The position numbers and the translations under genes were made by a program. From assembly GCA_038064535.1 (NCBI GenBank), contig JBBTSX010000005.1, positions 13,051-77,050 of the forward strand: a stretch of DNA of 64,000 nt, in the 5' to 3' direction. Source of the stretch: Patescibacteria group bacterium (GTDB lineage: Bacteria; Patescibacteriota; Minisyncoccia; Phycocordibacterales; UBA2100). This document shows positions 1 through 45,946 of this stretch, piece after piece (the stretch's first letter is position 1; each line of letters opens with the position of its first letter). Under the pieces are notes generated by a model. The model had not been told where the DNA came from. It searched no databases and saw nothing but the letters and a program-made list of their open reading frames with translations.

Positions 1-1682
1 ACGCGCTCGGTGTCCGGCTCCTGCGCGAACTCCACGCCGAGGCCAAGCTTCCTCGCGGGTTCGTCATTTGGGACCGCGACGACAGTATCCGCTCCATCAA
101 AGCGGTGCTTGAGAAGCTCGACAGCAAGCAATGGGCGCCGCGTAGCATGCTCTCGGCTATCTCGCGACAGAAAGGCGACGGGGTGGACGTGCACATGTAT
201 GCACAGGGCGCGAAGACATACCGGGAGAAAGCCGTCGCCCGCGTGTGGGAAGAGTACGAACGCGCACTCTCGGCAGACGGCGCGCTCGACTTCGACGATT
301 TACTCCTGCGCACGCTTGCGCTCCTGCGCGGGAGCGAACGGGTACGCTCGCTTCTGCAAAACCGCTGGTCGCACATCACCATTGACGAGTATCAGGATAC
401 CAATAAATCGCAGTACGAAATCGCGCGCATCCTCGCGGGGGAGAAGAAAAACATTTGTGTCGTCGGCGACACCGATCAGAACATTTACAGCTGGAGGGGC
501 GCGGACATCGAGCACCTGCTCGGATTCGAAGCGTCGTTCCCCGGCGCGCGCGTCATCGTACTCGAACAGAACTACCGTTCGACGCGCACCATCCTCGCCG
601 CCGCGAATTCCGTCATAGAAAAAAATCTTCGCCGCCGTCCGAAGCACCTCTTCACCGACAACCCGACGGGCGAGCCAATCGCACTCTATCCGGCACAGAA
701 TGAAATCGACGAGGCGTGGTTTGTCGCGCAAATCACACAGGAGGCGATCGGGCGGGGGGTGAGCGCCGGCGAGATAGCGGTCTTGTACCGTGAAAATTTT
801 CAATCCCGCGCGCTCGAGGAGGCGATGCTGCACTTCGGCATTCCGTATCGCGTGCTCGGCACGAAATTCTTCGAGCGCAAGGAGGTCAAAGACGTGCTCA
901 GCTACCTGCGCGCCGCGATGAATCCGCAAAGCGGCAACGATATCGCGCGCACGGTTGCCGTGCCGCCGCGCGGTATCGGCAAGGTGACCGTCGACAAGAT
1001 GTTGCGCGGCGAAGACGCGGCTCTTCCGGCTGCGGCCCGCGCGAAAGTCGCGGCATTCCGCGACACGCTCGCGCGCATCAAACATGCCATCGACACACTA
1101 CCGACCTCCGAGGCCGTGCGCTATGCAGTGGAAGCGAGCGGCATGGGAAAAATGTACGAGGCAAAACGCTCGGCGAAATCTGATGACGAAGCGCAGGAGC
1201 GTCTCGAAAATATTCACGAGCTTGTGAACCTCGCGACGAAGTACGACCATGAACTGCCGCCATCGGGCATCGAACGACTACTCGAAGAAGCCGCGCTGCA
1301 GAGCGACCAGGACGAACTGCCGGAAGAAAAGAGCGCCGTCTCGCTCATGACCGTACACGCCTCAAAGGGTCTTGAATTTGATGCCGTCTTCGTTACGGGC
1401 CTTGAACAGGGGCTTTTTCCGTCGCTGCGCGACCTGCCCGCGCGCGGCGCGCAGGCGGGGGGCGATTCCGACCGCGACCCCGAAGAAGAGCGGCGGCTCT
1501 TGTATGTGGCGCTTACGCGAGCGCGCAAACAGCTGTTTCTCACTTATGCCTCCGCCCGCATGAAGTACGGCTCGCGCGAGTACACACTGCCGTCGGAATT
1601 TCTCGAAGACATCGACCAACGGCTCCTCACAACAATCAACCTGTTCGCCTCGCAGGAGAAAGAGGAGGAAATACAAATATGA
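1..1682 (+). CDS. uvrD: ATP-dependent DNA helicase UvrD/PcrA family, 5' partial (continues upstream of window)
   Basis: Frame-3 translation is open from position 3. UvrD motifs present: IDEYQDTN, VVGDTDQNIYSWRGA, QNYRST, VTGLEQGLFP. Stop at 1680-1682. Confidence 0.85.
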   Translation, partial: ALGVRLLRELHAEAKLPRGFVIWDRDDSIRSIKAVLEKLDSKQWAPRSMLSAISRQKGDGVDVHMYAQGAKTYREKAVARVWEEYERALSADGALDFDDLLLRTLALLRGSERVRSLLQNRWSHITIDEYQDTNKSQYEIARILAGEKKNICVVGDTDQNIYSWRGADIEHLLGFEASFPGARVIVLEQNYRSTRTILAAANSVIEKNLRRRPKHLFTDNPTGEPIALYPAQNEIDEAWFVAQITQEAIGRGVSAGEIAVLYRENFQSRALEEAMLHFGIPYRVLGTKFFERKEVKDVLSYLRAAMNPQSGNDIARTVAVPPRGIGKVTVDKMLRGEDAALPAAARAKVAAFRDTLARIKHAIDTLPTSEAVRYAVEASGMGKMYEAKRSAKSDDEAQERLENIHELVNLATKYDHELPPSGIERLLEEAALQSDQDELPEEKSAVSLMTVHASKGLEFDAVFVTGLEQGLFPSLRDLPARGAQAGGDSDRDPEEERRLLYVALTRARKQLFLTYASARMKYGSREYTLPSEFLEDIDQRLLTTINLFASQEKEEEIQI

Positions 1683-1698
1683 CACGGCGTGGCGCCCG

Positions 1699-1796
1699 CC
1701 CCGTTAGAAGCCTTTTACAATCAAGTTCAACGGAGCGAATCGGAATATCAGAGCATATAATAAAAAACTATGGCGCGTAGAGCTTCTAACGGGGCA
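1699..1796. repeat. palindromic intergenic element, copy 1 (arms GCCCCGTTAGAAGC / GCTTCTAACGGGGC) between uvrD and rsmA; the loop contains the rsmA start codon
   Basis: Exact 14-nt inverted arms read directly; element family present at least 8 times in the window. Confidence 0.85.
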
Positions 1797-2585
1797 AGAC
1801 TCGGACAGCACTTCTTGAAACACGGCTGGGCCGCGCGTTCGCTCGCATACGCCGCCGCCATCCGTGATGGAGAAACATTTCTTGAAATAGGTCCCGGCAA
1901 GGGAATCCTGACCAAAGAACTGCTCACTCTCGGGCCTGTCGTCGCAGTAGAGAAAGACGAAATGCTCGTCGGACAATTGAAAGAAACTTTTGCCGAGGAC
2001 ATTGCGAGCGGGCGGTTGCGACTCGTTGCCGGCGACGTGCGCGATGCGACGCCGGAGAATCTCGGGCTTACCAAGTATGTGGTGGCGGCGAATATTCCGT
2101 ACTACATCACCGGTGAAATTATCCGGCAATTTCTGACGACTACGATACAACCGCGCGCCATGGCACTGCTTGTGCAAAAAGAGGTTGCACAACGTATCAT
2201 CGGTCACCCCTCGACTGCGCTCGGGGTCACGAAAGAGAGTATTCTCTCTCTTTCCGTGAAAGCGTACGGCACACCGCGACTTGTGGAAAAAGTTTCGCGC
2301 ACGCATTTCTCACCGCCGCCCTCGGTTGATTCTGCGATACTCGCCATCACTGACATCTCGAAAAAATTCTTTGACACCATATCGGAAGAAGACTTCTTCC
2401 GTGTGGTGCGCGCGGGATTTGCTTCCAAAAGAAAGATGCTTGCGAACAATCTCTCGGTGATATTCGATAAAGCTCGCGTGAACGAGTCACTACTCGCGTG
2501 CGACATCTCTGCGAAAGCACGGGCGGAGAATGTGCCGCTTGAGAAGTGGAAATCTATAACTCAACTACTGCTCGGTCACAGATAA
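1770..2585 (+). CDS. rsmA: 16S rRNA (adenine1518/1519-N6)-dimethyltransferase RsmA/KsgA
   Basis: LGQHFL and ANIPYYIT motifs with Rossmann GPGKG. N-terminal ARRASNGAR is an unusual extension encoded by a palindromic repeat arm. Confidence 0.9.
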   Translation: MARRASNGARLGQHFLKHGWAARSLAYAAAIRDGETFLEIGPGKGILTKELLTLGPVVAVEKDEMLVGQLKETFAEDIASGRLRLVAGDVRDATPENLGLTKYVVAANIPYYITGEIIRQFLTTTIQPRAMALLVQKEVAQRIIGHPSTALGVTKESILSLSVKAYGTPRLVEKVSRTHFSPPPSVDSAILAITDISKKFFDTISEEDFFRVVRAGFASKRKMLANNLSVIFDKARVNESLLACDISAKARAENVPLEKWKSITQLLLGHR

Positions 2586-2711
2586 TTTCCTCGCCGTCGC
2601 GGGAAAAACATATGGCTCGGCTACAACTCTCGCCGCGCCGTCGCGCGGCTCGGTCGCAGCCCCACCTCGCGGCGCCGCAAGCTTGCGGCGCATCGCTCCG
2701 GTCGACAAGCC

Positions 2712-2745
2712 AAGTACAAAAAGCTGCGCAGGCAGCTTTTTGTTA
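2712..2745. terminator. bidirectional terminator-like palindrome CAAAAAGCTGCGCAGGCAGCTTTTTG
   Basis: Perfect hairpin with flanking A and T runs between rsmA (+) and the small minus-strand gene. Confidence 0.55.
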
Positions 2746-3057
2746 CTGGCTTGTCCCAAGCATCGTAATCATGATGCCGGCACGGACGTCGATGGGAAGA
2801 ATTGAGATAATGCAGTAGTAGGGCGCCCCCGCGAGGCCGAGAAGCCACTGACCCGCGTGCGTCGGCGGACCGTTTTTGTACGTCTTTGTCGACGGCGTCC
2901 ATATGTACACGCCGCCGCGCGGCGGGCCGACGTAGGCGATGATGGCGTTGTTGTAGCAGGGGGAAACTTGCGAGGCTTGGCCGCCGAACGGGAAGGCAAG
3001 CGCGAGTGCGGGGAAGAGAAGGGTCACTATCGCGACTGCTGTAGCCGGTGCACGCAT
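2743..3057 (-). CDS. small hypothetical secreted protein (signal peptide MRAPATAVAIVTLLFPALALA)
   Basis: ORF 2743..3084; start re-picked at the internal Met preceding a signal-peptide-like segment. No recognisable homology. Confidence 0.35.
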   Translation of the reverse strand: MRAPATAVAIVTLLFPALALAFPFGGQASQVSPCYNNAIIAYVGPPRGGVYIWTPSTKTYKNGPPTHAGQWLLGLAGAPYYCIISILPIDVRAGIMITMLGTSQ

Positions 3058-3123
3058 GCATGTAGTATACGGTATTTCAGACACGGCGCGTGGTCTTGCG
3101 AGGTATACTTATTCTATATATGG

Positions 3124-3246
3124 ACCCCGTTAGAAACCGCGGTCGCTCGGCGGCAATCCCGTTCCAGTCGAACAAACCTATACAAGTATGAGTGACTTTA
3201 ACGACCCGCAAGACTTTCGACCGCGACCTGTTTCTAACGGGGTGGG
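3124..3246. repeat. palindromic intergenic element, copy 2 (ACCCCGTTAGAAACC ... GTTTCTAACGGGGTG) enclosing the start of the 3188 gene
   Basis: Arm variant GAAAC; extended imperfect pairing CGCGGTCG/CGACCGCG inside. Confidence 0.8.
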
Positions 3247-4126
3247 ATGGGCACGCCTACACCCGTACCTATCCGCCCTGATTGCGGCGGGTGCGTTCCT
3301 TGTGTTCGGCATACTCGTGGTGGGGTACCGTGCATCACAACCGCAAGGTGGCAATCTGCAAGTGTGGGGAGGCGGACCGGACGCTTTCCTCAATCCGACA
3401 TCGTATGCACCCGGAGCTACGGTGGGCACACAAATAGAGACCATCGGCGGCGGGAACACGCCGGTATTCAGTGCCCTGCGTCCGCAACAGCAAACCGGCG
3501 AACAAAATGAGACAAGTGGAGGGTTTGATATTTCTCTGTTCATCGCGGGACTTTCTCAACCAAACGCGGACACCGCGGCGGCACCTGTTTCGGGCCGGCC
3601 GGATCTGAGTCTCGCGTATTCTTTCATTCCGAGCGGGCTGGTCGCGACGACGACACCCGGACCGAAGCGAAGCGCACTGCAGGAATCGCTCTATCAATAC
3701 GGCAACGATGTAGGCTCGTACATATCCACATACGAGGCCGCCGGCGCGAATACCGGACAGGTGCTCACGGACCAATTGAACGACCGGCAAAACCCGCAAA
3801 AAGCGCAGGCGGTGCGCGATATCGGCACGGCATTGCAGGCGGCCGGTAAAACCTTACAAGGAATCGAAGCCGTCCCTTCTATTGTGTCTTCGGCGCATAC
3901 CGCTCTCGCGGAGAGTTACATAGAAGCCGGTATCAAGCTCTCGCGCGTGCCCGACGCGCAGAGCGACCAAGACTTCATCACCGCTATACAGGACTACAAC
4001 ACCGCCGCCGAACGGCTCGGGCGCAACTACGTCGCGCTCGCGAACGTTTTCTCGGGTGCAGGTGTGAGATTTGCACCGCAGGACCCGGGGTCGGTGTTCA
4101 ATTTCTCCGGCAATGCCGGACTGTAG
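3188..4126 (+). CDS. hypothetical membrane-anchored protein, first gene of the plus-strand secreted-protein/T4SS-like cluster
   Basis: 312-aa ORF with an N-terminal TM helix (LSALIAAGAFLVFGILVVG). Its start is overlapped by a repeat arm; alternative GTG start near 3238. Confidence 0.55.
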   Translation: MSDFNDPQDFRPRPVSNGVGWARLHPYLSALIAAGAFLVFGILVVGYRASQPQGGNLQVWGGGPDAFLNPTSYAPGATVGTQIETIGGGNTPVFSALRPQQQTGEQNETSGGFDISLFIAGLSQPNADTAAAPVSGRPDLSLAYSFIPSGLVATTTPGPKRSALQESLYQYGNDVGSYISTYEAAGANTGQVLTDQLNDRQNPQKAQAVRDIGTALQAAGKTLQGIEAVPSIVSSAHTALAESYIEAGIKLSRVPDAQSDQDFITAIQDYNTAAERLGRNYVALANVFSGAGVRFAPQDPGSVFNFSGNAGL

Positions 4127-4264
4127 TCGAGAATCCGCGCAACAGGGGAGCGGGGCTCGCCCTGTGAGATAGATACTCGGGGCGCGCAAGCAAAACGATT
4201 CACTCTCCCATTCCGACTGGGCAAACACACGGAAACGCGTTATCTCACGGGGTATACTTGTACT

Positions 4265-5086
4265 GTGCGCGTACTGCAACAAATATTCCGGTCCCCGCTG
4301 GGTGTAACTGCCGCACTTTCCGTGGTGCTCTTGCTCGGCGTCTCGGTCTCCCAGATTTCCTCACTCATGCATCAGAACCGACAGGTGCTCGCATTTGTCG
4401 CCATACCGGCGGCACAGACAGCCGCGGCCGATGGTGCCGACTGGCAACAGGAAATGACATTACTCGGACTGAATACGGAAAACAATCCAGCAGCGACTTC
4501 GACGACCGACAGTATCGCAATGATCGGCCATATTGTAATCGCCGAGATGGTGGGGCAATACGCCGGCCTGCAGGATAGGGGAACGTACACCACGGAGACC
4601 GGACAAAACGCGTCCGCTGACATCGCCGCGAATCTCCGCGCGAACATTTTGTACAAAACATACTCGACGACCGACTTCAAAACAGACACGGACGTTTCCT
4701 ACGACCGCATGCTTACGTACCGGAGTGATTTGCGCGCGGCGCTCGCGCCGCTGTTACAAAACACCGGCGCGGAATTGGAACTGTACGGCAAATATATCGA
4801 AACCGCGGACACGAAGTATCTCGGCCAACTCTCCTCTGCGGCGGCAAATTACCGCGCGGCCGCGGAAGGCGCGGCCGCGCTCACCATCCCGCGCGACGCG
4901 GTAAATTATCACAAAGATATTCTGAACGCGATGGAGAAATTCTCCGCGACGCTTGACCAGATGGCGACGCATGCCGCGGACCCGCTCGCCTCCGCCGCGC
5001 TCTTGCGTACGTTCAACCAAGCCGAAACGGACATGTACACTTCGTTCAACGCGCTTTCCAATTATTACGGCCAGAAGACACCATGA
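4265..5086 (+). CDS. hypothetical secreted/membrane-anchored protein
   Basis: 273-aa ORF with an N-terminal hydrophobic segment. Stop TGA overlaps the ATG of the next palindromic element (ATGA). Confidence 0.5.
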   Translation: MRVLQQIFRSPLGVTAALSVVLLLGVSVSQISSLMHQNRQVLAFVAIPAAQTAAADGADWQQEMTLLGLNTENNPAATSTTDSIAMIGHIVIAEMVGQYAGLQDRGTYTTETGQNASADIAANLRANILYKTYSTTDFKTDTDVSYDRMLTYRSDLRAALAPLLQNTGAELELYGKYIETADTKYLGQLSSAAANYRAAAEGAAALTIPRDAVNYHKDILNAMEKFSATLDQMATHAADPLASAALLRTFNQAETDMYTSFNALSNYYGQKTP

Positions 5087-5220
5087 GCCCCGTTAGAAGT
5101 CAGAACCAGATACGCAATACCCCCGTACGACCCACGGGAGATACTGTAATGCAACATGGAGAGCAGCGGACAAAAAATAATTTACGGAATTATTTTTTGC
5201 CAATGACTTCTAACGGGGTG
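5087..5220. repeat. palindromic intergenic element, copy 3 (GCCCCGTTAGAAGT ... ACTTCTAACGGGGTG) between the 4265 and 5203 genes
   Basis: Arms exact over 13 nt; inner nested palindrome AAAAAATAATT-TACGG-AATTATTTTTT. Confidence 0.8.
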
Positions 5221-6849
5221 AGAATTCAAAGCGGCATACTCATAGCACTGTTTGTCCTTGCGCCCACGCTTGTTTTCGCGCAGTCCGACGGATCTTCGCC
5301 GTCGTTCTCGAGAGAGGGGGTGTTCGGCTGCAGCCAGACCGGTTCATATTCCATGTCGGTCGGCGCGCTCTCGGCGGTGGGCGGAGCTTTCGTGCCGGTC
5401 AACGACGCGGCGGTCACCTTGAATACCGGTTATCTCGTCTACAAGGAGTGCGTCCTGCGCGGCATTGTGGACAGAATGCGCGAAAATGCGACCGCAAATC
5501 TCCAACGACAAATCCTCGTCGCCTACCAACGCGGACGCAACGGCCAGCCGCTCTTTTCGCAGAGTATTCCGCTCGAATCCAGGGCCGTCGCTGACAAAGC
5601 GGTTCTCGACTACACGCAGAGCGGCCAATTCAACACTCTCAACCCGGCGCTCAGGCAAGCCGTTTCGCGTGCGGTGGTGCAAAACTACATGGCCGCGCGC
5701 AACAAGCCCAGCGCGGCGTACGGTTGCTCATACTCCGGCAATCTCAATTCCGTCTACAAAGGCAACCCCGATGGCGGAGCGTGGGCCGGACTCTCCGCAC
5801 TGCAAAATCCGGCGTGCGACCCGATATTTGCCTACGGCATCGCCAACGAGCAGGTCCTCGGCTCCGCCGCCTACGCGGTCAACAACATGCTCACGCGACT
5901 CGAGTGGGACAACGGCAACTATCCCATCATGGGCGTCGACGCGGACGGTAACCCCATCGTGCTCACTCCCGGCTACATCGTGGGGGAAAACGCTCTGCAG
6001 GCACTGCAGACCGGTTTCGACCAGCTCTCGCGGGCGAACGACATCGACCAAATGGTGGGCGCGCTGTTTGCCGGCATTACCTCACAGGTCATCGGCGACA
6101 ACAAAGGTCTCGTCGGTCTCACCAAGTCGACCGGCGGCATACCGAGCTACCTTGATCAGGTGGTGTCGCAGTCCGCGCAGGGACTCCGCAACAGCGCCAT
6201 CAACGCCGGCATCGGAATACTCGTGGCACAACAAAAAATCGAAAGCCAGATACTCGGCTTTGCAAAAATGATTCTCGACAAAATCAAAGCCATTTCGCAA
6301 GCGCTCCAAGTCAAAGAGAACGCCTGCTGGAAACTCGTCGTAAGTAGCGTCTGCTCGTCCTCGCTCGCCTCCGACAACACGTGTACGGATGACGGTGGTA
6401 GTAGGTACAAAGTGGCGACATCGACCTTCCAATTCACGCAAAAAGCGCTGGACGCGTCGCAAGTCGCCGCCTACCAGCGGGTGCACCAGCAGGTCGCGAG
6501 CTCGTCGCAAATCATTCTCACACAAATAAGCGTCCTCATCGCACAGCTCACTGACACATCGTCGTATACCGCCCAGCTCGCCGCGCTTCAGGCGCTCGAC
6601 AGGCTCGCCAACGATGGTATTGTATTCCACACGCCGCAGGACGTGACGAACGAGCAGAGCGCGGCCGGTACGCTCGTCGGTCAAAACGGCGGCTCGGGCA
6701 CGCTCGACCAGCTTGTCACCGACACCGTGGCGGCGTGGGCGGATTCGACCAACACCAAGACCGGATGGTGCAACGTCACCAGACAGCCAGTCGTGGATGC
6801 TTGGAAAGACTGTTGGAGAGAGGGGAGCACCTCATGCCTATGGCCGTAA
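5203..6849 (+). CDS. hypothetical large secreted protein (signal peptide MTSNGVRIQSGILIALFVLAPTLVFA)
   Basis: ORF track gives 5083..6849. The start is re-picked at 5203 because the first 40 codons lie inside a palindromic element and a signal peptide begins at 5203. Confidence 0.55.
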   Translation: MTSNGVRIQSGILIALFVLAPTLVFAQSDGSSPSFSREGVFGCSQTGSYSMSVGALSAVGGAFVPVNDAAVTLNTGYLVYKECVLRGIVDRMRENATANLQRQILVAYQRGRNGQPLFSQSIPLESRAVADKAVLDYTQSGQFNTLNPALRQAVSRAVVQNYMAARNKPSAAYGCSYSGNLNSVYKGNPDGGAWAGLSALQNPACDPIFAYGIANEQVLGSAAYAVNNMLTRLEWDNGNYPIMGVDADGNPIVLTPGYIVGENALQALQTGFDQLSRANDIDQMVGALFAGITSQVIGDNKGLVGLTKSTGGIPSYLDQVVSQSAQGLRNSAINAGIGILVAQQKIESQILGFAKMILDKIKAISQALQVKENACWKLVVSSVCSSSLASDNTCTDDGGSRYKVATSTFQFTQKALDASQVAAYQRVHQQVASSSQIILTQISVLIAQLTDTSSYTAQLAALQALDRLANDGIVFHTPQDVTNEQSAAGTLVGQNGGSGTLDQLVTDTVAAWADSTNTKTGWCNVTRQPVVDAWKDCWREGSTSCLWP

Positions 6850-10024: not shown

Positions 10025-10065
10025 CAGCAGGGCCGCGTGCATGCGCTTGGTATACTTATAGAGCC

Positions 10066-10566
10066 ATGCAATTCCAAGTTCCTCAATTTATAGAAGTCGA
10101 AGACAAGATTTTCGGGCCCCTGACCTTCAGGCAGTTCATTTTTATCGCCGGAGGACTCGGAATGGCCTACGTACTGTGGCGATTACTGCCCATTTATTTC
10201 GCCGCGCCGCTCATCCTCGGGGTAGGAGCGCTCGCGGCGGCGCTTGCGTTCTTCCAATTCAACGGCCGCCCGTTTATCATCGCGCTTGAGAATGGTTTTT
10301 ACTACATAATCCGCTCGAAATTGTACCTTTGGAACAACGCTAACAAGAAACGGGCGGTGAAGACAGCCGCAGTCGCCACGAGGAACGATGTGTACATCCC
10401 CAAGATTTCCGACAGCAAACTGCATGAGCTCGCATGGAGCCTCGACATCAAAGAACGTATCGCCGCCGGCACCGCGGGGGACGACGAGCGCGGTAGCGCA
10501 CTCACCGGTGTCCGCACGCCAAAAGAAATCCTGTCGCACATGAGCACACGTACGGTCACGCAATAA
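10066..10566 (+). CDS. PrgI-like small membrane protein (VirB3 analogue of Gram-positive-type T4SS)
   Basis: N-terminus MQFQVPQFIEVEDKIFGPLTFRQFIFIAGG followed by two TM helices is typical of the PrgI family. Positioned just upstream of VirB4. Confidence 0.55.
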   Translation: MQFQVPQFIEVEDKIFGPLTFRQFIFIAGGLGMAYVLWRLLPIYFAAPLILGVGALAAALAFFQFNGRPFIIALENGFYYIIRSKLYLWNNANKKRAVKTAAVATRNDVYIPKISDSKLHELAWSLDIKERIAAGTAGDDERGSALTGVRTPKEILSHMSTRTVTQ

Positions 10567-10569
10567 CCT

Positions 10570-11238
10570 ATGGCAGAAACTCCAATCATGACGCCGCGCG
10601 CAAACGCCAAGTCGACACAGGACTTCGTGCCGATTTCCGAAGTACGCGATGGCGTCGTGGTCCTCAAAGACGGCGGACTGCGCGCGATCCTGCTCGCGTC
10701 GAGTATCAACTTCGCACTCAAGAGCGAGGATGAGCAAACCGCGTTCATCGTGCAATTCCAAAATTTCCTCAACTCTCTCGACTTTTCGGTGCAAATATTC
10801 GTGCAGTCGCGCATGCTGGACATCCGTCCGTACGTCGCGACACTCGAAGCCGCATACAAGGAACAGCTCGACGACCTCATGCGTATCCAAATCCGCGAAT
10901 ATATCGAATTCATCAAGAGTTTCACCGAGGCCGCCAATATCATGACGAAAAACTTCTTCGTCGTCGTGCCGTATTCGCCCGCGGTCATCACGAAGCGCGG
11001 TGGTGCAAGCGCGCTGAATCCGTTCGGCAAAAAACAGACGGCGAGCGAGGCAGACCACTCATTCGAGGAGCAGGTGTCCCAGCTCGAGCAACGCATATCT
11101 ATCGTCCAGCAGGGCCTCGTGCGTACCGGTGTGCGCACCGTGCAACTCGGTACCGAAGAAGCAATAGAGCTACTCTACAAAATGTTCAACCCCGGCGAGG
11201 AGGGAAAACCGATGCCCGTAGAGACAGGGAATAGGTGA
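10570..11238 (+). CDS. hypothetical T4SS-associated protein
   Basis: 222-aa ORF between the PrgI-like and VirB4 genes. Contains a FVPISEVRDGVVVLKDGGLRAILL motif reminiscent of T4SS assembly proteins. Confidence 0.5.
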   Translation: MAETPIMTPRANAKSTQDFVPISEVRDGVVVLKDGGLRAILLASSINFALKSEDEQTAFIVQFQNFLNSLDFSVQIFVQSRMLDIRPYVATLEAAYKEQLDDLMRIQIREYIEFIKSFTEAANIMTKNFFVVVPYSPAVITKRGGASALNPFGKKQTASEADHSFEEQVSQLEQRISIVQQGLVRTGVRTVQLGTEEAIELLYKMFNPGEEGKPMPVETGNR

Positions 11239-11319
11239 TAGGGATTAGGGAATAGTAAAATACAATACACCACCATGCCCTCACTACAACCTACAACCTA
11301 CAACCTATAACCTATTCCT

Positions 11320-13239
11320 ATGGCATTCAGCGACCTTCTTCCGTTCAAGAAAAAAACCGCCGCAGGACCGGATATTTTGCCGGTACTACCCGAAGAAATC
11401 TACCAGACGGGGGTACTCGACCTGCAAGACGTCATCGCGCCGCACGCGCTCAAAGTAAACTCGCGCGAACTCGACTTGGGCGAGAAAATCGCGCGCACCT
11501 TCTTCGTCATCTCATACCCCAGATTCCTCACGACGGGATGGTTTGCCCCCATCATCAACATGGACAAGGTCATCGACATCTCCATCTTCGTACACCCGAT
11601 GGATACCAATGAAATGCTCCGTAAATTCCAGAAAAAAGTCGCCGAGGTGCAGAGCCAGATTTCGACACGCGAGCAGAAGGGGATGGTCCGCGACCCGATG
11701 CTCGACACGGCGTACTCCGACCTCGAACAGTTGCGCGACAGCCTTCAACAGGCGCAGGAGCGCATTTTTGACGTCGGACTCTATCTCACCATCTACGGCA
11801 ACACGCGCGAGGAAATCGACAAAGTGGAGAGCGATGTACGTTCCATTCTCGAGTCGCGTCTCGTGTACATCCGACCCGCGCTCTTCCAGCAGGAACAGGG
11901 CTTCCGCTCCGTCCTGCCGCTGTGCACCGACGAGCTCGACGTGCACACGAAGCTCAATTCCGCGCCGCTCTCGTCCATCTTTCCGTTCATCTCGTTCGAC
12001 CTCACGTCGGACCGCGGCATTCTCTACGGCATCAACCGTCACAATTCGTCTCTGATTCTCTTCGACCGTTTCTCGCTCGAAAACTATAACTCCGTGACAT
12101 TCGCAAAATCCGGCGCCGGCAAAAGCTACACGACAAAACTCGAGATTTTGCGCTCTCTCATGTTTGATACCGAGGTCATCGTCATCGACCCCGAGCGCGA
12201 ATACGAATACCTCGCCGAGACCGTCGGCGGGCGCTACTTCAACATTTCGCTTTCCTCCGAGCACCACATTAATCCTTTCGACCTCGCCATTCCGCGCGAA
12301 GATGAAAATCCGAGCGACGTGCTACGCAACAACATCATCACGCTCGTGGGGCTCTTCCGCATCATGCTCGGCGGGCTCACGCCGGAGGAAGACGCTGTTA
12401 TCGACAAGGCGATAACGGAAACCTACGCGCTCAAAGACATCACCTCGGATACCAACTTCGCGCAGGTCGAGCCGCCGCTTCTCTCCGACTTCGAGCTTGT
12501 ACTCTCCGGCATGGAAGGGAGCGAATCTCTCGTGCAACGTCTCTCCAAATACACCAAGGGCACGTGGTCGGGATTCATGAACCGCCCGACCAATGTTGAC
12601 ATGAACAAAAAACTCGTCGTCTTCTCGGTGCGCGACATGGAAGACGACCTCAAGCCGGTCGCGATGTACATCATTACGCACCACATCTGGAATCAGGTGC
12701 GCAAAGAGCTCCGCAAGCGCCTCCTCGTCATCGACGAGGCGTGGTGGATGATGCGTAGCGAAGACACCGCGTCGTTCCTCTTCTCCATCGCAAAGCGCGG
12801 CCGCAAATACTACCTCGGCATTTCGACCATCACGCAGGACGTCTCGGACTTCTTGAATTCCCCGTACGGTATCCCGATGATAACCAACTCTTCCATCCAG
12901 CTTCTTTTGCGTCAGTCACCGACATCGGTCGACCTTGTGCAGAGCACGTTCAAACTCTCCGACGAGGAGAAATACCTACTGCTCGAGAGTGACGTGGGGG
13001 AGGGCATATTCTTCGCCGGTCTCAAGCACGTCGCGCTCAAGGTCATCGCCTCGTATACCGAAGACCAAATCATCACCTCGGACCCGTCGCAAATTCTCGC
13101 AATCAAAAAAGCGAAGCAGGATCTCGAAAAATCGAGTGATGTCCCTGCGCCGGTGCGCCCCATCGCTCCTCACGCGCCGGGTACCGACACCGCGCCCGCG
13201 CCGCAAGCTCCTTCAAGCAACGCCTTACGGGAGGTATGA
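11320..13239 (+). CDS. virB4: type IV secretion ATPase VirB4/TraC/PrgJ-like
   Basis: Walker A AKSGAGKSYTT. Gram-positive VirB4 N-domain pattern KIARTFFVISYPRFLTTGWFAPIINMDKVIDISIFVHP. Walker B-like LLVIDEAWWMM. Confidence 0.85.
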   Translation: MAFSDLLPFKKKTAAGPDILPVLPEEIYQTGVLDLQDVIAPHALKVNSRELDLGEKIARTFFVISYPRFLTTGWFAPIINMDKVIDISIFVHPMDTNEMLRKFQKKVAEVQSQISTREQKGMVRDPMLDTAYSDLEQLRDSLQQAQERIFDVGLYLTIYGNTREEIDKVESDVRSILESRLVYIRPALFQQEQGFRSVLPLCTDELDVHTKLNSAPLSSIFPFISFDLTSDRGILYGINRHNSSLILFDRFSLENYNSVTFAKSGAGKSYTTKLEILRSLMFDTEVIVIDPEREYEYLAETVGGRYFNISLSSEHHINPFDLAIPREDENPSDVLRNNIITLVGLFRIMLGGLTPEEDAVIDKAITETYALKDITSDTNFAQVEPPLLSDFELVLSGMEGSESLVQRLSKYTKGTWSGFMNRPTNVDMNKKLVVFSVRDMEDDLKPVAMYIITHHIWNQVRKELRKRLLVIDEAWWMMRSEDTASFLFSIAKRGRKYYLGISTITQDVSDFLNSPYGIPMITNSSIQLLLRQSPTSVDLVQSTFKLSDEEKYLLLESDVGEGIFFAGLKHVALKVIASYTEDQIITSDPSQILAIKKAKQDLEKSSDVPAPVRPIAPHAPGTDTAPAPQAPSSNALREV

Positions 13240-15933: not shown

Positions 15934-16437
15934 TTACTCCGTCGAATACTTGATGACGACGCGGCGATTTCGCCCCTCTCCTTGTGATTCTGTTTTTACG
16001 TTCGGTGCATCTTGAAGCGTTGTGTGAATAATGAGGCGCTCATAGGCACTCATCGGCGTGAGCTCCACGTCGTATTGAAAAGAGCGTGCGCGCTCCGCGA
16101 GCATGAGCGCTTTGGTCTGCAAATCTTTTATCTGCTTCGCGCGGTAGTCGTTGATGTCAACGAGGAACATCGGACTATCCGCTCCCTCTACGAGCGGTTG
16201 CCGCTTTTCCAAAATCTTTTTCACGAGCATGTCGAGCGCGTAAATGGTGTCGCCGTGCGCGCCGATGAGCGTACGCGCATCATCGGTCTCTATCGTGAAA
16301 ATGGTCTGGCCGGCGATTTCGGTGCGGGTGACACCCTTGTAGGAAACACCGAGCGCGGTCAACATCTCTTTGAGGATTGTTTCGACAGTGTCGGCGTACG
16401 TGTCCACCCCGTTAGAAGCTGACGTTGATTGGGTCAT
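15934..16437 (-). CDS. jag: RNA-binding protein Jag/KhpB (KH + R3H domains)
   Basis: Position downstream of yidC. C-terminal R3H-like region. ORF track start 16491 lies inside a palindromic element; start re-picked at the Met at 16437. Confidence 0.8.
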   Translation of the reverse strand: MTQSTSASNGVDTYADTVETILKEMLTALGVSYKGVTRTEIAGQTIFTIETDDARTLIGAHGDTIYALDMLVKKILEKRQPLVEGADSPMFLVDINDYRAKQIKDLQTKALMLAERARSFQYDVELTPMSAYERLIIHTTLQDAPNVKTESQGEGRNRRVVIKYSTE

Positions 16438-16488
16438 AAAAAATTGTTGTCCCACCGAGAGTCGCTCCGGGGAGCTTCTAACGGGGTC
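16406..16488. repeat. palindromic intergenic element, copy 4 (ACCCCGTTAGAAGCT ... AGCTTCTAACGGGGT) between yidC and jag, enclosing the jag start
   Basis: 18-nt perfect arms including the ATG/CAT. Confidence 0.85.
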
Positions 16489-16532
16489 CATTGGGGCACT
16501 ATACGCTATTTTCCCGCGCCGTGCGAATACCC

Positions 16533-17830: not shown

Positions 17831-17932
17831 GGACGGTTGCGTGCGTTTGCCGTGTTCGCAGCCGCGTCGGCGGCGAGATTCAGCGCTGCGCGAGCACGCG
17901 CAGACAGCGACGGCAAACGCACGCAACCGTCC
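17831..17932. repeat. perfect 23-bp inverted repeat (GGACGGTTGCGTGCGTTTGCCGT / ACGGCAAACGCACGCAACCGTCC) with a 56-nt loop containing nested palindromes, in the rpmH-dnaA intergenic region
   Basis: Read directly from the sequence; cruciform/long hairpin capable. Confidence 0.8.
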
Positions 17933-21228: not shown

Positions 21229-23664
21229 CTACTGAATCGTGAAGTTGATTTGCGTTGAGTCGTTGCCGCCGTTTACGAGCGCGGCCATTGCCTGCAGTAT
21301 CGACGGGCCGCGGGAGTTGGGGACGTACGTGATTGTGTACGGCGGCTGTGTCGCAGTGCCAACGGGTGCGCCGTTGAGGAAGTATGTCATTTTGGTGACA
21401 TTTTGCGGACTCGGATATGAGGAACTAAAGATTATAGAAGTATTCGCCGGTACGTATGAGCTCGGTGCCGGCGAGGTAATTTGGAATCCCTGCGTGATCG
21501 CGGTGCCTACTCCTGGCCCCGCCGGACCAGCGACATTGCCGACGAGAGCTTGCCCCGCGGCCCACAGCGAGACGGGGTAATCCCACGCCGCCGTTTGGCC
21601 GTCGGCAAACGGGTTCAACGGCGGCGCACCACGCGGGTCGCTCTTGTTGACCCAGTAGAGGATGTCGTGCACGCCTCGCTCGGGATGACTATTCCAGTTG
21701 CCGGTGAGGACCGGAGGCAGAGACGTTTGCGCCGGGTCGGGAGATGGCGGCGGGAAATCGCCGGACGGATATTTCTCAAGCGCATAGGCGACGAATTCGT
21801 GCCACATCGGCGCGATGATGAACGCCGCGATTTTTTTCGCCATCGGAGAGTTGTCGTTGTTGCCCGCCCACGCCCCCACCGCGATGCCGGGCGTGTAGCC
21901 CAGTATCCAGACGTCGCGGAAATCGTTGGTTGTGCCCGTCTTGTCGGCGACGTGGTAGCCATCGAACTGGAGCGGCGAATCGGCTCCAAATTCCGGCGTG
22001 CGCGCCACGTTGTCGGAGAGAATGTCGTTTATTTCACGGGCTATTTGGGGCTCAAGCACACGCGTCGCAGTGTTTTGGTATTCCTCCAAGACGTTCCCCT
22101 TCCCGTCTTCTACGCGGAGGATGCCGGTCGGCGGATTGCGTACGCCGTCATTCGCAAAGACGCTGTACGCGCCGGTCATTTCGAGAAGAGTCACTTCACC
22201 GCCGCCGAGTACGAGCGTAAGTCCGTAGCGCGCCGCGTTACCGAGCGTGGTAATGCCGAGCGATTGCGCGGTTGAAATGGCGTCCTGAATACCGGAGAGG
22301 TAGAGCGTTTTGACCGCCGCCACGTTTATCGATTGTGCAAGAGCGTTTCGCAGAGTCATCGGGCCCTTGAAGTTGCCGTCGAAGTTGGATGGCGAATAAC
22401 ACGGTGGCGCGTCGTTGAGGTTGTCGGTCGGCGCACACGCGGTCGAAAACTGTGTCGGTAGGTCGAAGACCACGGTCTCCGGCGTGTATCCTTTTGCAAA
22501 CGCGGTCGCGTAGACGAACGGCTTGAACGAAGAGCCCGGCTGGCGGTGGCTCGTCGCGATGTTGACCTTGCCGTCGATGGTGTCGTCGAAATAGCCGCGT
22601 GAGCCGACCATGACGAGAATTTGTCCGGTCGTCGGGTCGATGGCCACGAGCCCTTCGTTGGTCGCGTTGAAGTTCTCCTGCATCCGCGGCGCCCACTTGG
22701 ACACAATGTCTTCCGCCTTCTTCTGGAGGTCGTAATCGAGTGTCGTGATGACACGCAAGCCGCCCTGCGCGACCACATCCGCGCCGTACTTCTGTTCGAG
22801 ATATTCGCGGACGTAGAAGACGAAGTGCGGCGCCTTGATACCCACCTCTCTCTCATCGCGGAATTGGACCTGTTCGGAGACGGCCTGCGTGTATTCGGCA
22901 TCGGTGATGACGCCGAGCGACTTCATGCGTGAGAGTACGAATTTGGCGCGTGCGTCGAGGGCGGCGCGGTGACTGCCGTAGGGCGAGAAGTAGGTGGGCG
23001 CCTGCGGAAGCGCGGCGAGGTAGCTCGCTTGCGCGAGGTCCACGTCTTTGGCGTCGACGCCGAAGAAGTACTGACTCGCTTCCTGTACGCCGTAGATAGT
23101 GCCGCCGTACGGCGTCTCGTTGAGATACGTCTCGAGAATTTTTTCTTTCGGGTACGTTCTGGTGAGGCGAAGAGCGAGTATGATCTCTTCGATTTTGCGC
23201 GCGATGGTTTTGTTCTGTGTCAGCAGCGCGTTTTTTACCACTTGCTGGGTGATGGTCGAACCGCCCTGCGTGTACGAACCCGTCGTGATGTTTACGAAGA
23301 CCGCGCGGGCGAACGAGACCGGACGGAAACCGGCGTTTGCGTAAAACGTGTCGTCTTCGGTAGCGATTGCCGCCTTTTGAATGAACGGACTTATCTGGTC
23401 GAGCGTGACCGACGTGCGGCGCACGGAGCCGTGTACGTCGTAGAGGACGACATTGCCCGTGCGGTCGTATATCTTGGTCGACTGCGAGACCTGCCGGTTC
23501 TCGAAATTCTCTATCGACGGGATGGGGGTAAACAGCGCCCACACAATGATTCCGCCGATTCCGAAAAAGAAGAGACCCATCGCCGCGGCGATAGAAAGGC
23601 GCATCCACTCGGGGACGCGGTTGAACAAACGGCGCGTACGCCGGAACCTGCGAGACTCACTCAT
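21229..23664 (-). CDS. ponA: class A penicillin-binding protein (glycosyltransferase + transpeptidase) with a C-terminal extension
   Basis: GT51 motifs (GGSTITQQVVKN), transpeptidase SSFKPF, SxN and KTGTT. N-terminal TM anchor. Confidence 0.9.
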   Translation of the reverse strand: MSESRRFRRTRRLFNRVPEWMRLSIAAAMGLFFFGIGGIIVWALFTPIPSIENFENRQVSQSTKIYDRTGNVVLYDVHGSVRRTSVTLDQISPFIQKAAIATEDDTFYANAGFRPVSFARAVFVNITTGSYTQGGSTITQQVVKNALLTQNKTIARKIEEIILALRLTRTYPKEKILETYLNETPYGGTIYGVQEASQYFFGVDAKDVDLAQASYLAALPQAPTYFSPYGSHRAALDARAKFVLSRMKSLGVITDAEYTQAVSEQVQFRDEREVGIKAPHFVFYVREYLEQKYGADVVAQGGLRVITTLDYDLQKKAEDIVSKWAPRMQENFNATNEGLVAIDPTTGQILVMVGSRGYFDDTIDGKVNIATSHRQPGSSFKPFVYATAFAKGYTPETVVFDLPTQFSTACAPTDNLNDAPPCYSPSNFDGNFKGPMTLRNALAQSINVAAVKTLYLSGIQDAISTAQSLGITTLGNAARYGLTLVLGGGEVTLLEMTGAYSVFANDGVRNPPTGILRVEDGKGNVLEEYQNTATRVLEPQIAREINDILSDNVARTPEFGADSPLQFDGYHVADKTGTTNDFRDVWILGYTPGIAVGAWAGNNDNSPMAKKIAAFIIAPMWHEFVAYALEKYPSGDFPPPSPDPAQTSLPPVLTGNWNSHPERGVHDILYWVNKSDPRGAPPLNPFADGQTAAWDYPVSLWAAGQALVGNVAGPAGPGVGTAITQGFQITSPAPSSYVPANTSIIFSSSYPSPQNVTKMTYFLNGAPVGTATQPPYTITYVPNSRGPSILQAMAALVNGGNDSTQINFTIQ

Positions 23665-29459: not shown

Positions 29460-31709
29460 ATGTCATTTCAAGAAGCTTCACGTTGGGTACTTGTCGCCGT
29501 TTTCCTTGTGGCGGGACAGTGGGCGTTCTCTTTTCCCGTCCGGCAACAGCAGGCCGCATTTCTGGCGCAAGCGGCGACTCCGGTGGTTTGTCAGAGTAAG
29601 ACAAAGGCGCCAAGTGTTGAAGAAGAGTGCAGGCCGGGTTGCGAGTACTTCGTGCGGCCGAGCTACTCCAAGCAGGGGTCCGTGGATGTCATCGCATCCG
29701 TCTCGGACCCCACGGGCAAACTGCCCGGCATCGTGAAGTACAAAGACGGCAAAGGCACCGTCATCATGCTGTGCAACGGGACGGTGGGAAAGTCGCTCGA
29801 CAATCACGCGGGAGTTCTACAGTCGGGAGCACCTCTTCAGCCACAGGGACAGGAAATCACGACACTTCTAACGGGAGTGCCAACCCCCGCATCCGGTTAT
29901 TCCGGAGTCAGCGAGGCCTTTTCGGTCTCGGGTGGATATACGCCGACTCCGCTTGAGCACCGCGAATCAGTTCCGAGTGATTTCTTCGGCGCAGGGTCTT
30001 CGGGCTCGCTCGGAGCCGCGCCCAACCCCGCCGTGAGTTTCGACGGCTATCTCGGGGGGAACTACTGCCTCGGGCAGTTTTGTCCTGTAGAAGGAGAGGG
30101 CGTGCAACGGAATTTTGATGCGCTACCGAATGACGGAAACCCGAATACGAACCCTTTCGGAAACATCGCGGAAATGAACTCCGCTCGCGTTCCGCAAAAT
30201 GTCGGCATAGAGAACGCGCTAATCGCGGACAGGGCGCGTCTGAACATGTCCACAGACGTGCGGATGAATTCCGCCGTAGAGCAGTGGAGCGGTTTCGAGC
30301 GGAGTGGACAATTGGATCGGCCACAGTATGAGGGCGTCGATGGTGAGCGCACGGTCGCTCAGTCAATCAATGCGGCCGTCCGCGACTATGCGCAACAGGA
30401 TGTCGGCTACGCCGTAGCGCAGGTGACCGGAGAAACCGCCGCGGGCGAGCCGGGTGTGTTAGTTTCGTACACGAAGGACGGAGTGCTCGCGCGCGACCCG
30501 TACGACGGCTCGCTTCTGTTCGCTCACACCAAAGAGCAATTGCCGGTTCTCTACACGGCAGAGGGTGAGGCGGTGCCGACGTCGAATCAGTCCGGAGAGT
30601 GGTTGGGGGTGATGAAGGAGAGGATTCAGACTCCGGCGGAGTTGCGGGAATTTGAGAGGGCATATACCGGAACCTATTCGGCGGTATTTACGCCCGCCGA
30701 TATCAAGGTTCCCGGATTGAACCTCAATATGTTACCGGATGATGTGAGGAACAGACTCGATAGTTATGCGAGATGGGACGGCAACGGTCCGGAGTCGATG
30801 GGCGCATCAAACGATGTGATTATACGCAGCTTGAGCGGAGAGGAGAAGTTACGAATATCAGATGACGTATTTCGGGCTATCCAAACACACGAGAACGAGG
30901 TTTACGGCATCGACGCGACCGCGAGTCGTATCGAGCGCGACACGCAAGGGAAAATGAATCTCAACATCTCCGGCCTTCCGCAAGAGACAAGTGCCGGGGG
31001 CGCGCTTGCTCCAGCGTACGCGCTCGTGCCACTGCCCGGCGAGTTACGGGCGTGGACGGCAAGCGCTATTGAAACCGAACTGGGCAAATACCCGCCGGAG
31101 TATTGGGAGAATGCGAACAAGGGTGCCCTATACGACTTTATGCCGCGCCCTGATATGCAGGGTGTTGTGCGGGAGGGCGGACATGCGACCGCTCCCGGGG
31201 ATCCCAAGGCGCATATGTATATCAATGGCTTGAATAGCGCCGCCGGTATTGCAGTAATCCTTAATCACGAACTCTCCCACTACAACGATAACAAGACTTT
31301 TGTGTCGGACAGCACATTCGGAACTGTAGTATACGGGTCATCGTACGGAATGTCGTATGCGGGCTCCAGCGGGTACGAAGCCATCACGTCGGGGAAGTTT
31401 GACATAGGACGACCCGATGGGTTCGCGGACAGTTACGGCTACCGCGGCGGCGTGCAGGAAGACAAAGCGAGCATCGTGGAAGCGATGTTCACCAATTATT
31501 CTGTCGTTCGAGAAGCGATGCTGACGGACCCGATTCTCGCCCAGAAGGTACAGATTCTCCAAAGCGGATTTGAAAAAAGCACGAACGGCGTCATGAATGA
31601 GGCCTACTGGCAGAATCTAAAACCGATTGACCCGTGGTACCGCCTGTCTCCCGCGGTGTCGAGACCGAATTTCTTCCGGACATTGCTATCGAAACTTTGG
31701 TTCAAATAG
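29460..31709 (+). CDS. large secreted protein with HExxH motif (putative zincin-like metallopeptidase), paralog A
   Basis: Signal peptide. HELSH motif, then a conserved Y.GG..E.KA block shared with the 32118 ORF. Confidence 0.6.
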   Translation: MSFQEASRWVLVAVFLVAGQWAFSFPVRQQQAAFLAQAATPVVCQSKTKAPSVEEECRPGCEYFVRPSYSKQGSVDVIASVSDPTGKLPGIVKYKDGKGTVIMLCNGTVGKSLDNHAGVLQSGAPLQPQGQEITTLLTGVPTPASGYSGVSEAFSVSGGYTPTPLEHRESVPSDFFGAGSSGSLGAAPNPAVSFDGYLGGNYCLGQFCPVEGEGVQRNFDALPNDGNPNTNPFGNIAEMNSARVPQNVGIENALIADRARLNMSTDVRMNSAVEQWSGFERSGQLDRPQYEGVDGERTVAQSINAAVRDYAQQDVGYAVAQVTGETAAGEPGVLVSYTKDGVLARDPYDGSLLFAHTKEQLPVLYTAEGEAVPTSNQSGEWLGVMKERIQTPAELREFERAYTGTYSAVFTPADIKVPGLNLNMLPDDVRNRLDSYARWDGNGPESMGASNDVIIRSLSGEEKLRISDDVFRAIQTHENEVYGIDATASRIERDTQGKMNLNISGLPQETSAGGALAPAYALVPLPGELRAWTASAIETELGKYPPEYWENANKGALYDFMPRPDMQGVVREGGHATAPGDPKAHMYINGLNSAAGIAVILNHELSHYNDNKTFVSDSTFGTVVYGSSYGMSYAGSSGYEAITSGKFDIGRPDGFADSYGYRGGVQEDKASIVEAMFTNYSVVREAMLTDPILAQKVQILQSGFEKSTNGVMNEAYWQNLKPIDPWYRLSPAVSRPNFFRTLLSKLWFK

Positions 31710-38099: not shown

Positions 38100-38187
38100 A
38101 ATTTCGGCTCCTTAGCTCATTATTATGAGGCAAGAAGGCGGATACTTGTCCCGTTAGATGGCTTGAAATAAGCCTATCTAATGGGAT

Positions 38188-38215
38188 TGACAAATGGCTC
38201 TAATATGCTATACTT
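38188..38215 (+). promoter_or_regulatory. strong sigma70-like promoter TTGACA-N16-TATACT in the ruvB upstream region. No plus-strand CDS follows, so it may drive a small RNA.
   Basis: Consensus -35 with near-consensus -10. Downstream 200 nt are lower-GC, structured and non-coding. Confidence 0.35.
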
Positions 38216-38431
38216 CACGCCAGTCCTCCATAGCTTTAGCGACGGAGGATTTCTGTTTTCTCCTGCTTCGCCGAAGGCTTCGCAGGACTCCGGAGACGCA
38301 CAGCTTTGGGCAATGGTGATTTTTCCGAGGACGCGGAGGTTTCGGCTCCCGCTATCCTTAGGTCCTTATCGCAACATTCTCCCGAATGCATTGCCCAAAC
38401 TTGTGCATCTCCATCTGATTTGAACCATAGC

Positions 38432-38531
38432 ACCCCGTTAGAAAATGCAAAGCGCGTTCTTGATTAGGACGCGCTTTGTTCGCATTGGCAAATTATCGGC
38501 CTGTTGTCGTTCACACTAATTTCTAACGGGG
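38432..38531. repeat. palindromic intergenic element, copy 5 (CACCCCGTTAGAAAATGC ... AATTTCTAACGGGGCG) in the ruvB upstream region, with an inner hairpin AAAGCGCG...CGCGCTTT
   Basis: Plus a degenerate solo arm at 38150-38161 (CCCGTTAGATGG). Confidence 0.75.
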
Positions 38532-38566
38532 CGAGCCCGATAGCAGGCGCAAGGGGCTTTGCCTGC

Positions 38567-38600
38567 CCCGTTGGAAGCGAAGCTTTCCAACCGGGGTGGT
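38567..38600. repeat. compact variant of the palindromic element (CCCCGTTGGAAGC-GA-AGCTTTCCAACCGGGG)
   Basis: Tight hairpin with A to G arm variant. Confidence 0.65.
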
Positions 38601-45900: not shown

Positions 45901-45946
45901 AAAGAAGTTCTCTGTATACAACAGGGTACGTTGCACTCCCGCGGGC

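Follow-up and report, generated by a model that had tools for sequence, protein, structure and literature searches.

Miniature inverted-repeat elements at gene starts in a Patescibacteria genome, probable derivatives of small mobile elements that encode a GIY-YIG protein

A 64,000-nucleotide stretch of a Patescibacteria group bacterium genome (GenBank assembly GCA_038064535.1, contig JBBTSX010000005.1, positions 13,051 to 77,050; the whole stretch is called the window here) contains seven short elements bounded by paired inverted arms, five of them near the first codons of genes. The elements are 54 to 131 bp long, with 13- to 15-bp terminal inverted repeats and a 4-bp target-site duplication at a T-N-N-A target, and they are very probably non-autonomous miniature transposable elements, deletion derivatives of elements of about 279 bp that encode a GIY-YIG protein. 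A preliminary description, made from the window's sequence, had noticed that left arms carry an ATG overlapping the upstream stop codon and that right arms sit on the downstream start, and had offered two explanations, a coupled leader peptide or systematically over-extended N-termini. It missed the root cause, which is a mobile element with 4-bp target-site duplications; the pattern is very probably caused by transposition rather than by an evolved leader peptide.

The arms stand out clearly from background. When the window was scanned for CCCGTTAGAA with at most one mismatch, 18 occurrences were found against 3.3 expected, a number that none of 100 shuffles reached. Paired motif sites form the seven elements (Table 1), each bounded by the perfect inverted repeats CCCCGTTAGAAGC...GCTTCTAACGGGG, with arms of 13 to 15 nt that are 100% complementary; besides these there is one solo arm within a coding region (29866-29875). 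Arm variants are always compensated across both arms, as in copy 7, whose arms CCCCGTTAGAGGC and GCCTCTAACGGGG carry a compensated A-to-G/T-to-C change (...AGAGGC/GCCTCT...). The interiors are 28 to 103 nt long, and in every predicted fold the arms form the closing stem (-33 to -51 kcal/mol, z -2.3 to -7.8), a stem that would arise in RNA if transcription covers both arms. The arms match no known RNA family, as Rfam at gathering thresholds returned only four tRNAs over the window, and a promoter scan of positions 1500-5400 gave hits no commoner than in shuffles. Pfam-supported names of genes around the elements are UvrD, RsmA, R3H/Jag-like, YidC, RibH, and cytidylyltransferase.

Paired 4-bp flanks are seen at six of the seven window copies (Table 1), and the same signature recurs elsewhere. 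An arm-pair scan of one genome per species found at least 120 loci, distributed over Patescibacteria (many classes), Omnitrophota, Planctomycetota, Deltaproteobacteria, and others. For flank and start-codon statistics we used 139 copies from many genomes among the matches listed, to which the following counts refer. A perfect 4-bp direct repeat flanks 82 of the 139, compared with 7.5% when flank partners are shuffled, and direct repeats of 3 or 5 bp are not enriched. The first flank position is T in 109 copies and the fourth is A in 114, giving the target consensus T-N-N-A, of which TAAA, TTTA, TGAA, and TTCA are the commonest forms. With regard to phage as a vector, a viral collection gave only one match.

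In silico restoration, in which an element and one copy of its duplication were removed and the resulting gene start was read, returned an ordinary start at each of the five gene-associated sites. The 5083 site becomes ATGAGAATT, giving MRIQSGILIALFVLAP, with an ATGA that overlaps the upstream stop; the 16491 site (minus strand) becomes ATGGACACG, giving MDTYADTVE after TATAGT-N6; the 3120 site becomes ATGGGATGG, giving MGWARLHPYL; the 61811 site becomes ATGACCCGTATC; and the rsmA site at 1679 gives the N-terminus MTRRGARLGQHFL. Because deletion of the element and one duplication restores normal N-termini, these sites speak for insertion rather than for an evolved leader peptide.

Relatives contain the sites in both states. 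The Kaiserbacteria genome that encodes an 81%-identical RsmA (L121-L123, including L122) has no element at any of the three sites between 1678 and 5220, matching the prediction exactly: its rsmA site reads ATGACGAGACGCGGGGCAAGACTC (MTRRGARLGQHF), its copy 2 site TATATATGGAATGGGCG, and its copy 3 site CCATGAGAATTCACAGC (MRIHSGILIALFVLAP). All three sites are filled in L124, a relative with 87% RsmA identity. A Jag ortholog locus (L265) is likewise empty, reading TATAGTGCCCTGCATGGATACGTAC, or over a longer reach TATAGTGCCCTGCATGGATACG. Empty sites matching the prediction were therefore found at four of the five gene-start positions, three in L122 and one in L265; this comparison covered the four gene-start copies other than copy 7, for which the evidence is its duplication and its restored start. 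The proteins agree with the DNA. The 81%-identical RsmA ortholog (P0004) begins MTRRGARLGQHFLKH, without the ASNG extension, and shares the start MTRRGARLGQHFL with the element-deleted window gene. Of 120 RsmA homologs, 117 lack ASNG, and MARRASNG occurs only in the two closest (95% and 87% identity). Jag orthologs begin MDYAPEVE or MDTYADVE. The family has also moved recently in this lineage, since L124 carries an extra 128-bp copy (6377-6504, duplication TATA) within the TATACT box of its ortholog of the 4265 gene, a site that is empty in the window (4240-4267) and in L122.

At the start of the Jag gene, the element occupies the same ATGGA site in L267 (90% protein identity) and in L266 (76%), and Jag orthologs that are 82-83% identical lack it; either an old insertion was followed by loss or a hot spot was hit recurrently. 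The arms at this site are identical in the window and L266 and differ by one change in the left arm of L267, and the interiors have diverged. Among these three filled loci, an unbroken frame from the left-arm ATG is confined to the window genome: in the 90% relative two extra T's break it and the GTG is lost, and in the 76% relative the right repeat's TAA terminates it. All three retain an ATG of the S-N-G frame 7 to 10 codons ahead of the junction, and this comparison of orthologous sequences favours that internal ATG as the Jag start in use. Frame conservation, which the preliminary description had proposed as a check, gave a split outcome in a small sample. It fails for Jag, with the frame broken in two of the three copies, and holds for the short upstream open reading frame (uORF) of the 3188 gene, present in both copies: although L124 differs from the window by 18 substitutions in the interior, it retains both the 23 codons and the ATGA overlap. 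Across the window, L124, and L266, arms stay constant and interiors have diverged.

Most of the positional detail reported earlier stands. An ATG does lie 1 to 7 codons before the left arm in the CCC-GTT-AGA frame, although in five copies rather than the four first counted, and the starts at 1679, 5083, 16491 (minus strand), and 61811 are correctly placed; the remaining one is at 3120, not 3119. Two of these ATGs share bases with the stop of the preceding gene, ATG 1679 with that of uvrD (as ATGA) and ATG 5083 with that of the 4265 gene; ATG 61811 lies 2 nt beyond the ribH TAG. From ATG 3120 runs the 23-codon uORF, whose TGA (3189-3191) overlaps ATG 3188. The rsmA uORF also exists as described, with 33 codons from ATG 1679 to the TAG at 1778-1780, and overlaps the rsmA ATG at 1770, which is the sole available in-frame start and follows CATATAAT by 8 nt. 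The frames from 5083, 16491 (minus strand), and 61811 do run unbroken into the downstream protein, for 588, 185, and 157 codons; in these read-through copies (3, 4, and 7) the element length plus 4 is 135, 84, and 60 nt, and no stop intervenes. In the extended protein at copy 7, the Pfam cytidylyltransferase domain begins only at residue 26, and the public NCBI record P0121 carries the 185-aa extended Jag with its MDPVRS start. Such a left-arm ATG is absent from the copies at 38433 and 45802, both of them purely intergenic. Of the two explanations offered, over-extended N-termini came closer, with the qualification that the PVRS...SNG extensions are products of insertion. The coupled leader is unlikely as an evolved cause but survives as a consequence, in that an old ATG opens a short open reading frame (ORF) that ends at the new start.

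These observations show how the arrangement arises. The left-arm ATG is the original start of the gene, and it still overlaps the upstream stop or still follows a TATAnT box by 6 to 10 nt. Directly behind the second copy of the duplication the gene body continues, and the right arm therefore appears to sit on the downstream start. A duplication that is the TGNN from an ATGNN start places TG behind the final G of the repeat, which recreates a GTG in the original frame. Expression of the interrupted gene might then follow one of three routes: read-through from the old ATG if the element length plus 4 is divisible by 3 (as in copies 3, 4, and 7), a restart from an ATG inside the element in the S-N-G frame, or initiation at the regenerated GTG. 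After an out-of-frame insertion, the old ATG opens a short ORF that closes on or beside the new start, as at rsmA and the 3188 gene.

The wider sample shows the same preference for start codons. Twenty-two of the copies follow the ATG of an ORF of 100 aa or longer at a distance of exactly 5 nt, with TGNN as the duplication, and in 21 of these 22 a GTG in the original frame stands at the right junction. Read-through from the old ATG occurs in 3 of the 22, two of them in the window, and the uORF ends are scattered. The five gene-internal window copies are inserted 5 to 20 nt inside the gene, in each case between the second and third bases of a codon, and all in the P-V-R/S-N-G phase. This phase is open, as is P-L-E/L-T-G; insertion at the beginning of a codon is closed by a TAG in the left repeat and a TAA in the right. 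As an observation on starts in general, many window genes have a TATACT/TATAGT-like box ending 6 to 10 nt before the start and no Shine-Dalgarno sequence (examples in Table 1), suggesting that this genome makes much use of leaderless mRNAs.

A candidate parent emerged from longer elements with the same ends. The first of these to be found to encode a GIY-YIG protein were in L068, L002, and L074, and a metagenome scan for arm pairs 235 to 295 nt apart gave at least 125 elements of 247 to 322 bp. Among the matches listed, 73 of 125 contain a full GIY-YIG ORF; the commonest lengths are 279 and 281 bp. The ORF takes up the whole interior, beginning about 20 nt inside one repeat and running into the other, and encodes a single domain of 85 to 86 aa that matches Pfam GIY-YIG (PF01541, E = 5e-14, residues 1-67), the nearest solved structure being UPF0213 BH0048 (1ZG2). 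The 69 intact ORFs in that set have a median pairwise identity of 60%, which argues for purifying selection. Two subfamilies can be distinguished. In subfamily A the C-terminus is ...KRFLSLTG and the stop is in most cases supplied by a flanking TGAA or TAAA; subfamily B ends ...KFFFAKGF and uses the TAA of the right repeat as its stop. Full-length elements repeat the layout of the short upstream ORFs, with the nuclease ORF stop in the right repeat and, in some, an ATG 7 nt before that stop.

That all 69 ORFs have a repeat on either side follows from the way the search was built. Four proteins found independently by homology (P0332, P0248, P0286, and P0288) have repeats on both sides too, and the elements of the first three also have perfect duplications. 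By locus, perfect duplications of full-length elements are TTGA in L249 and TGAA in L257 and L268, with ATG..AA starts at two of these three. The protein family is large, with 555 cluster representatives at E <= 1e-10 in a profile-free HMMER search. Of 120 GIY-YIG homologs, 23 are annotated with an M-N/S-P-V-R-N start, often with no internal Met. Translation of these elements begins at a captured host ATG and passes through the left repeat; a subset of full-length elements has no start of its own and depends on the host's (MNPVRN...). In one groundwater study, GIY-YIG genes appear in the list of genes passed by Patescibacteria to other bacteria.

The connection between the miniature and full-length elements is clearest at copy 3. 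Its end, ...TTTTTTGCCAATGACTTCTAACGGGG, matches the 3' coding end of subfamily B (L246, L207, L159) at 28 of the 31 terminal nucleotides (90%), its first 16 nt match the start of the L207 element, and its right end consists of an A/T-run hairpin and a relic of the GIY-YIG gene 3' end, TTTTTTGCCAATGACTTCTAA, that reads FFANDF*. A family of miniature elements of about 130 bp in other genomes has the same end. These alignments show a link, at the level of sequence, through which the miniature elements would have been derived by deletion from the 279-bp elements; the enzymology that would accompany it we infer. More tentatively, and as no more than a possible reading at present, the 279-bp element could be a DNA transposon that is autonomous, belongs to a new enzymatic class, and is the smallest known, specialised for start codons and mobilising the miniature elements in trans. 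Such an element would insert at A|TGNN and borrow the ATG and promoter of the host gene to translate its nuclease through the P-V-R frame, and the host gene would receive a new start, either the GTG at the junction or an ATG overlapping the stop of the element.

Several results weigh against the account of the window copies as transposed elements descended from the GIY-YIG elements. The seven window copies have interiors unlike one another, and subterminal likeness to full-length elements, over 16 to 31 nt, is confined to copies 1, 3, and 5. Copy 5 has no recognisable target-site duplication, and those of copies 1 and 2 are imperfect. Between the window and L124, copies 1 and 3 differ at 1 of 96 and 0 of 131 positions, compared with 7 to 15 differences per 200 in the flanks, a degree of conservation that could reflect added constraint or gene conversion. 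The window itself has no GIY-YIG gene by tblastn and no transposase by Pfam scans of 30 of its approximately 48 ORFs. We know of no GIY-YIG enzyme that catalyses transposition or joins DNA strands, and a different transposase acting in trans could conceivably be responsible. Finally, direct-repeat flanks are found in only 7 of 44 subfamily A elements, many having inverted-complement flanks instead, for which a simple staggered cut fails as an explanation; direct and inverted-complement flanks alike would allow pairing at -1/+1 and -4/+4, and a search of other boundary offsets in this subfamily revealed no duplications.

We considered it unlikely that arms and short ORF together form a device evolved or retained at each locus for regulation, in which a leader peptide begun at the left-arm ATG is translated through a long-range hairpin and so opens the downstream start by coupling. 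Such a device would explain why every element folds with the arms as its closing stem, why the short ORFs at rsmA and the 3188 gene stop on the downstream ATG or beside it, why the 23-codon uORF and its overlap outlasted the substitutions in L124, and why arms are constant where interiors diverge. It is harder to reconcile with the empty orthologous sites, at which the genes work without the element, with duplications that mark insertions, and with the same arms at unrelated loci across phyla, purely intergenic sites included; the old-ATG frame, moreover, is unconserved in Jag orthologs, and the rarity of read-through and the scatter of uORF ends among the start-codon insertions likewise count against it. 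Far less probable still is that the arms are host-function sites, whether attC-like, an invertible promoter, or RNase III processing hairpins between cistrons. The attC core is GTTRRRY/RYYYAAC, with the order RYYYAAC ... GTTRRRY. The GTTAGAA/TTCTAAC of the arms resembles this core, the lengths of the elements overlap the attC range, and some interiors (copy 1) have TATAAT-like boxes, but the order GTTAGAA...TTCTAAC is the reverse of attC, the neighbouring genes have housekeeping functions, and the scanned ORFs include neither an integrase nor an invertase. An invertible promoter is rejected as well, the 28-nt interior of copy 7 being too short to invert. Rfam gave only tRNAs, and no model of this kind predicts the 4-bp duplications and the empty sites.

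A more serious competitor, which we nonetheless find doubtful, accepts transposition and assigns the miniature elements to a classical DDE insertion sequence of the IS1380/piggyBac type, with the GIY-YIG gene a passenger or an unrelated selfish gene. Terminal inverted repeats with a duplication of fixed length are the hallmark of DDE transposition, members of IS1380 start with CC and make duplications of 4 to 5 bp, and the lack of a known strand-joining GIY-YIG enzyme counts here in favour. The IS1380 repeats, however, are unlike CCCCGTTAGAAGC beyond the first two bases: those of ISEcp1 (CCTAGATTCTACGT), IS1247, and IS1678 (CCTGAATAATTC, with a GATAG duplication), taken from plasmid copies, share only CC with the arms, and such a parent was rejected. 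In approximately 250 loci examined, no larger element or transposase was bounded by CCCCGTTAGA repeats. The GIY-YIG ORF, furthermore, fills the 279-bp element, has its C-terminus or stop encoded by the repeat itself, and is intact in 69 diverse copies among the matches listed.

The window elements can be compared with several known systems. Their shared terminal repeats, fixed-length duplication, and presence/absence polymorphism make them miniature inverted-repeat transposable elements, and a candidate autonomous partner is the 279-bp GIY-YIG element, which has the same repeats and resembles them over as much as 31 nt of subterminal sequence. Palindromic elements of Rickettsia were reportedly described by Ogata et al. 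in 2000. They are short multicopy palindromes tolerated in protein-coding genes as in-frame peptides (PMC10969869). Like them, the present elements have no transposase of their own, and three of the seven window copies are in-frame insertions without a stop; compared by description, they differ in their repeats and in their hosts (Patescibacteria and other uncultured phyla), and in being concentrated at start codons with GTG regeneration, where the Rickettsia elements occupy gene interiors, and in having an identified candidate parent.

The piggyBac target is TTAA. The IS1380/piggyBac group resembles the present elements in its CC ends, its 4- to 5-bp duplications, and a T...A-type target, and differs in that no DDE transposase was seen in the loci examined here and that the repeats are unrelated beyond CC. 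The IS200/IS605 group, with REP/RAYT, has no terminal inverted repeats or duplications and uses an HUH tyrosine enzyme. It is nevertheless similar to the elements described here in linking a very small nuclease-type protein to dispersed palindromes, which in that group are distributed genome-wide and form hairpins in single-stranded DNA (PMC11893778). In protein architecture the elements resemble the Ssn/SRM system, in which a single-domain GIY-YIG protein of about 85 to 95 aa has hairpin repeats on both sides that are also scattered in the genome (Chenal et al. 2025, PMC11893778). Its authors noted an architecture resembling that of an insertion sequence, and target sites or duplications are not mentioned in their text (PMC11893778). 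Both systems have a single-domain GIY-YIG protein of less than 150 aa (85 to 86 aa here) whose gene is flanked by a dispersed repeat, but in the present elements the flanking repeats are halves of one inverted repeat rather than two separate hairpins. The published SRM pattern (HGTCWY..YYVSBRH..WNVSBRG..RNCYNB) was found in none of the 69 full-length elements and nowhere in the window, and it did match its NTS positive control. No published description of the element turned up in the literature on the arm sequence, on miniature inverted-repeat transposable elements of the candidate phyla radiation, or on GIY-YIG proteins with inverted repeats or duplications.

For annotation, the consequence is that candidate phyla radiation proteins with an M-x-PVR(S/N) start or an N-terminal ...SNG are likely to have mis-called starts. 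Artefacts of this origin are already in public records, among them the 185-aa Jag and the name "excinuclease ABC subunit C", which P0248 and P0332 carry although they are element-borne 85-aa GIY-YIG nucleases. For biology, an abundant, phylum-crossing mobile element lives in some of the smallest bacterial genomes, and by residing at start codons it leaves its own gene and that of the host both open to translation, an unusual accommodation between host and parasite. If the 85-aa GIY-YIG protein proves to be the mobilising enzyme, it would represent a new catalytic class for DNA transposition and would point to a mobile-element origin for the recently described Ssn-type nucleases.

Table 1. Arm-bounded elements of the window, with their flanks and associated starts, and examples of TATAnT boxes before gene starts
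Feature	Position	Strand	Length	Flanks or duplication	Starts	Remarks
Copy 1	1699-1794	+	96 bp	CCCG 1695-1698, CAAG 1795-1798 (imperfect duplication)	old rsmA ATG 1679; present ATG 1770 within element, after CATATAAT-N8	repeats 1699-1711 and 1782-1794
Copy 2	3125-3242	+	118 bp	TGGA 3121-3124, TGGG 3243-3246	old leaderless-type ATG 3120 after TATACT; internal ATG 3188; regenerated GTG 3242-3244	
Copy 3	5088-5218	+	131 bp	TGAG 5084-5087 / 5219-5222	old ATG 5083 overlapping upstream stop; internal ATG 5203; GTG 5218-5220	
Copy 4	16407-16486	-	80 bp	TCCA (sense TGGA) 16403-16406 / 16487-16490	old leaderless-type ATG 16491(-) after TATAGT; internal ATG 16437(-); GTG 16407-16405(-)	5' end of Jag/R3H gene
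Copy 5	38433-38531		99 bp			intergenic; strong internal hairpin
Copy 6	45802-45898		97 bp	TAAA 45798-45801 / 45899-45902		directly 3' of upstream gene's TAA stop, ~70 nt before next ATG
Copy 7	61819-61874	+	56 bp	CCCG 61815-61818 / 61875-61878	old start ATG 61811	
TATAnT box	10040-10068					
TATAnT box	23211-23230	-				
TATAnT box	4246-4267					
TATAnT box	16492-16512	-				
TATAnT box	3098-3122					

Arm pairs 160 to 6000 bp apart with matching flanks yielded only tandem or nested small elements. In a Jorgensenbacteria locus (L019, 2942-3105), two identical 80-bp copies stand in tandem, 4 nt apart. At L014, a repeat of about 330 bp with a nested 94-bp element occurs in inverted orientation (2046-2369 and 4832-5155) on either side of a gene for a 686-aa secreted protein; this 2.7-kb unit was rejected as a larger autonomous element, as what lies between the repeats is the secreted-protein gene and no transposase.

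Within the window, copy 5 lies in an unusually long intergenic region of 566 bp by ruvB (38100-38665), together with two short degenerate arm-arm hairpins (38150-38185 and 38566-38596) and a further 24-nt inverted repeat (38292-38315 / 38389-38412); Rfam has no match there, and the region could be a hot spot for insertion or an RNA gene that has gone unrecognised. The longest inverted repeat of the window is a perfect 23-nt repeat, GGACGGTTGCGTGCGTTTGCCGT, with a 56-nt spacer, located between rnpA and dnaA (17831-17932) and unrelated to the element arms. A cluster of PrgI-like and TraG/VirB4-like P-loop genes, resembling type IV secretion, occupies 10066-13239 and is kept in the Kaiserbacteria relative (L121-L123, 17700-20795), where a nearby gene of the Avd/23S_rRNA_IVP type hints at a diversity-generating retroelement. 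Directly upstream of the TraG-like ATPase gene of the window cluster (11320), tandem CTACAAC/CTATAAC heptamers and a 22-nt imperfect inverted repeat are found at 11228-11318.

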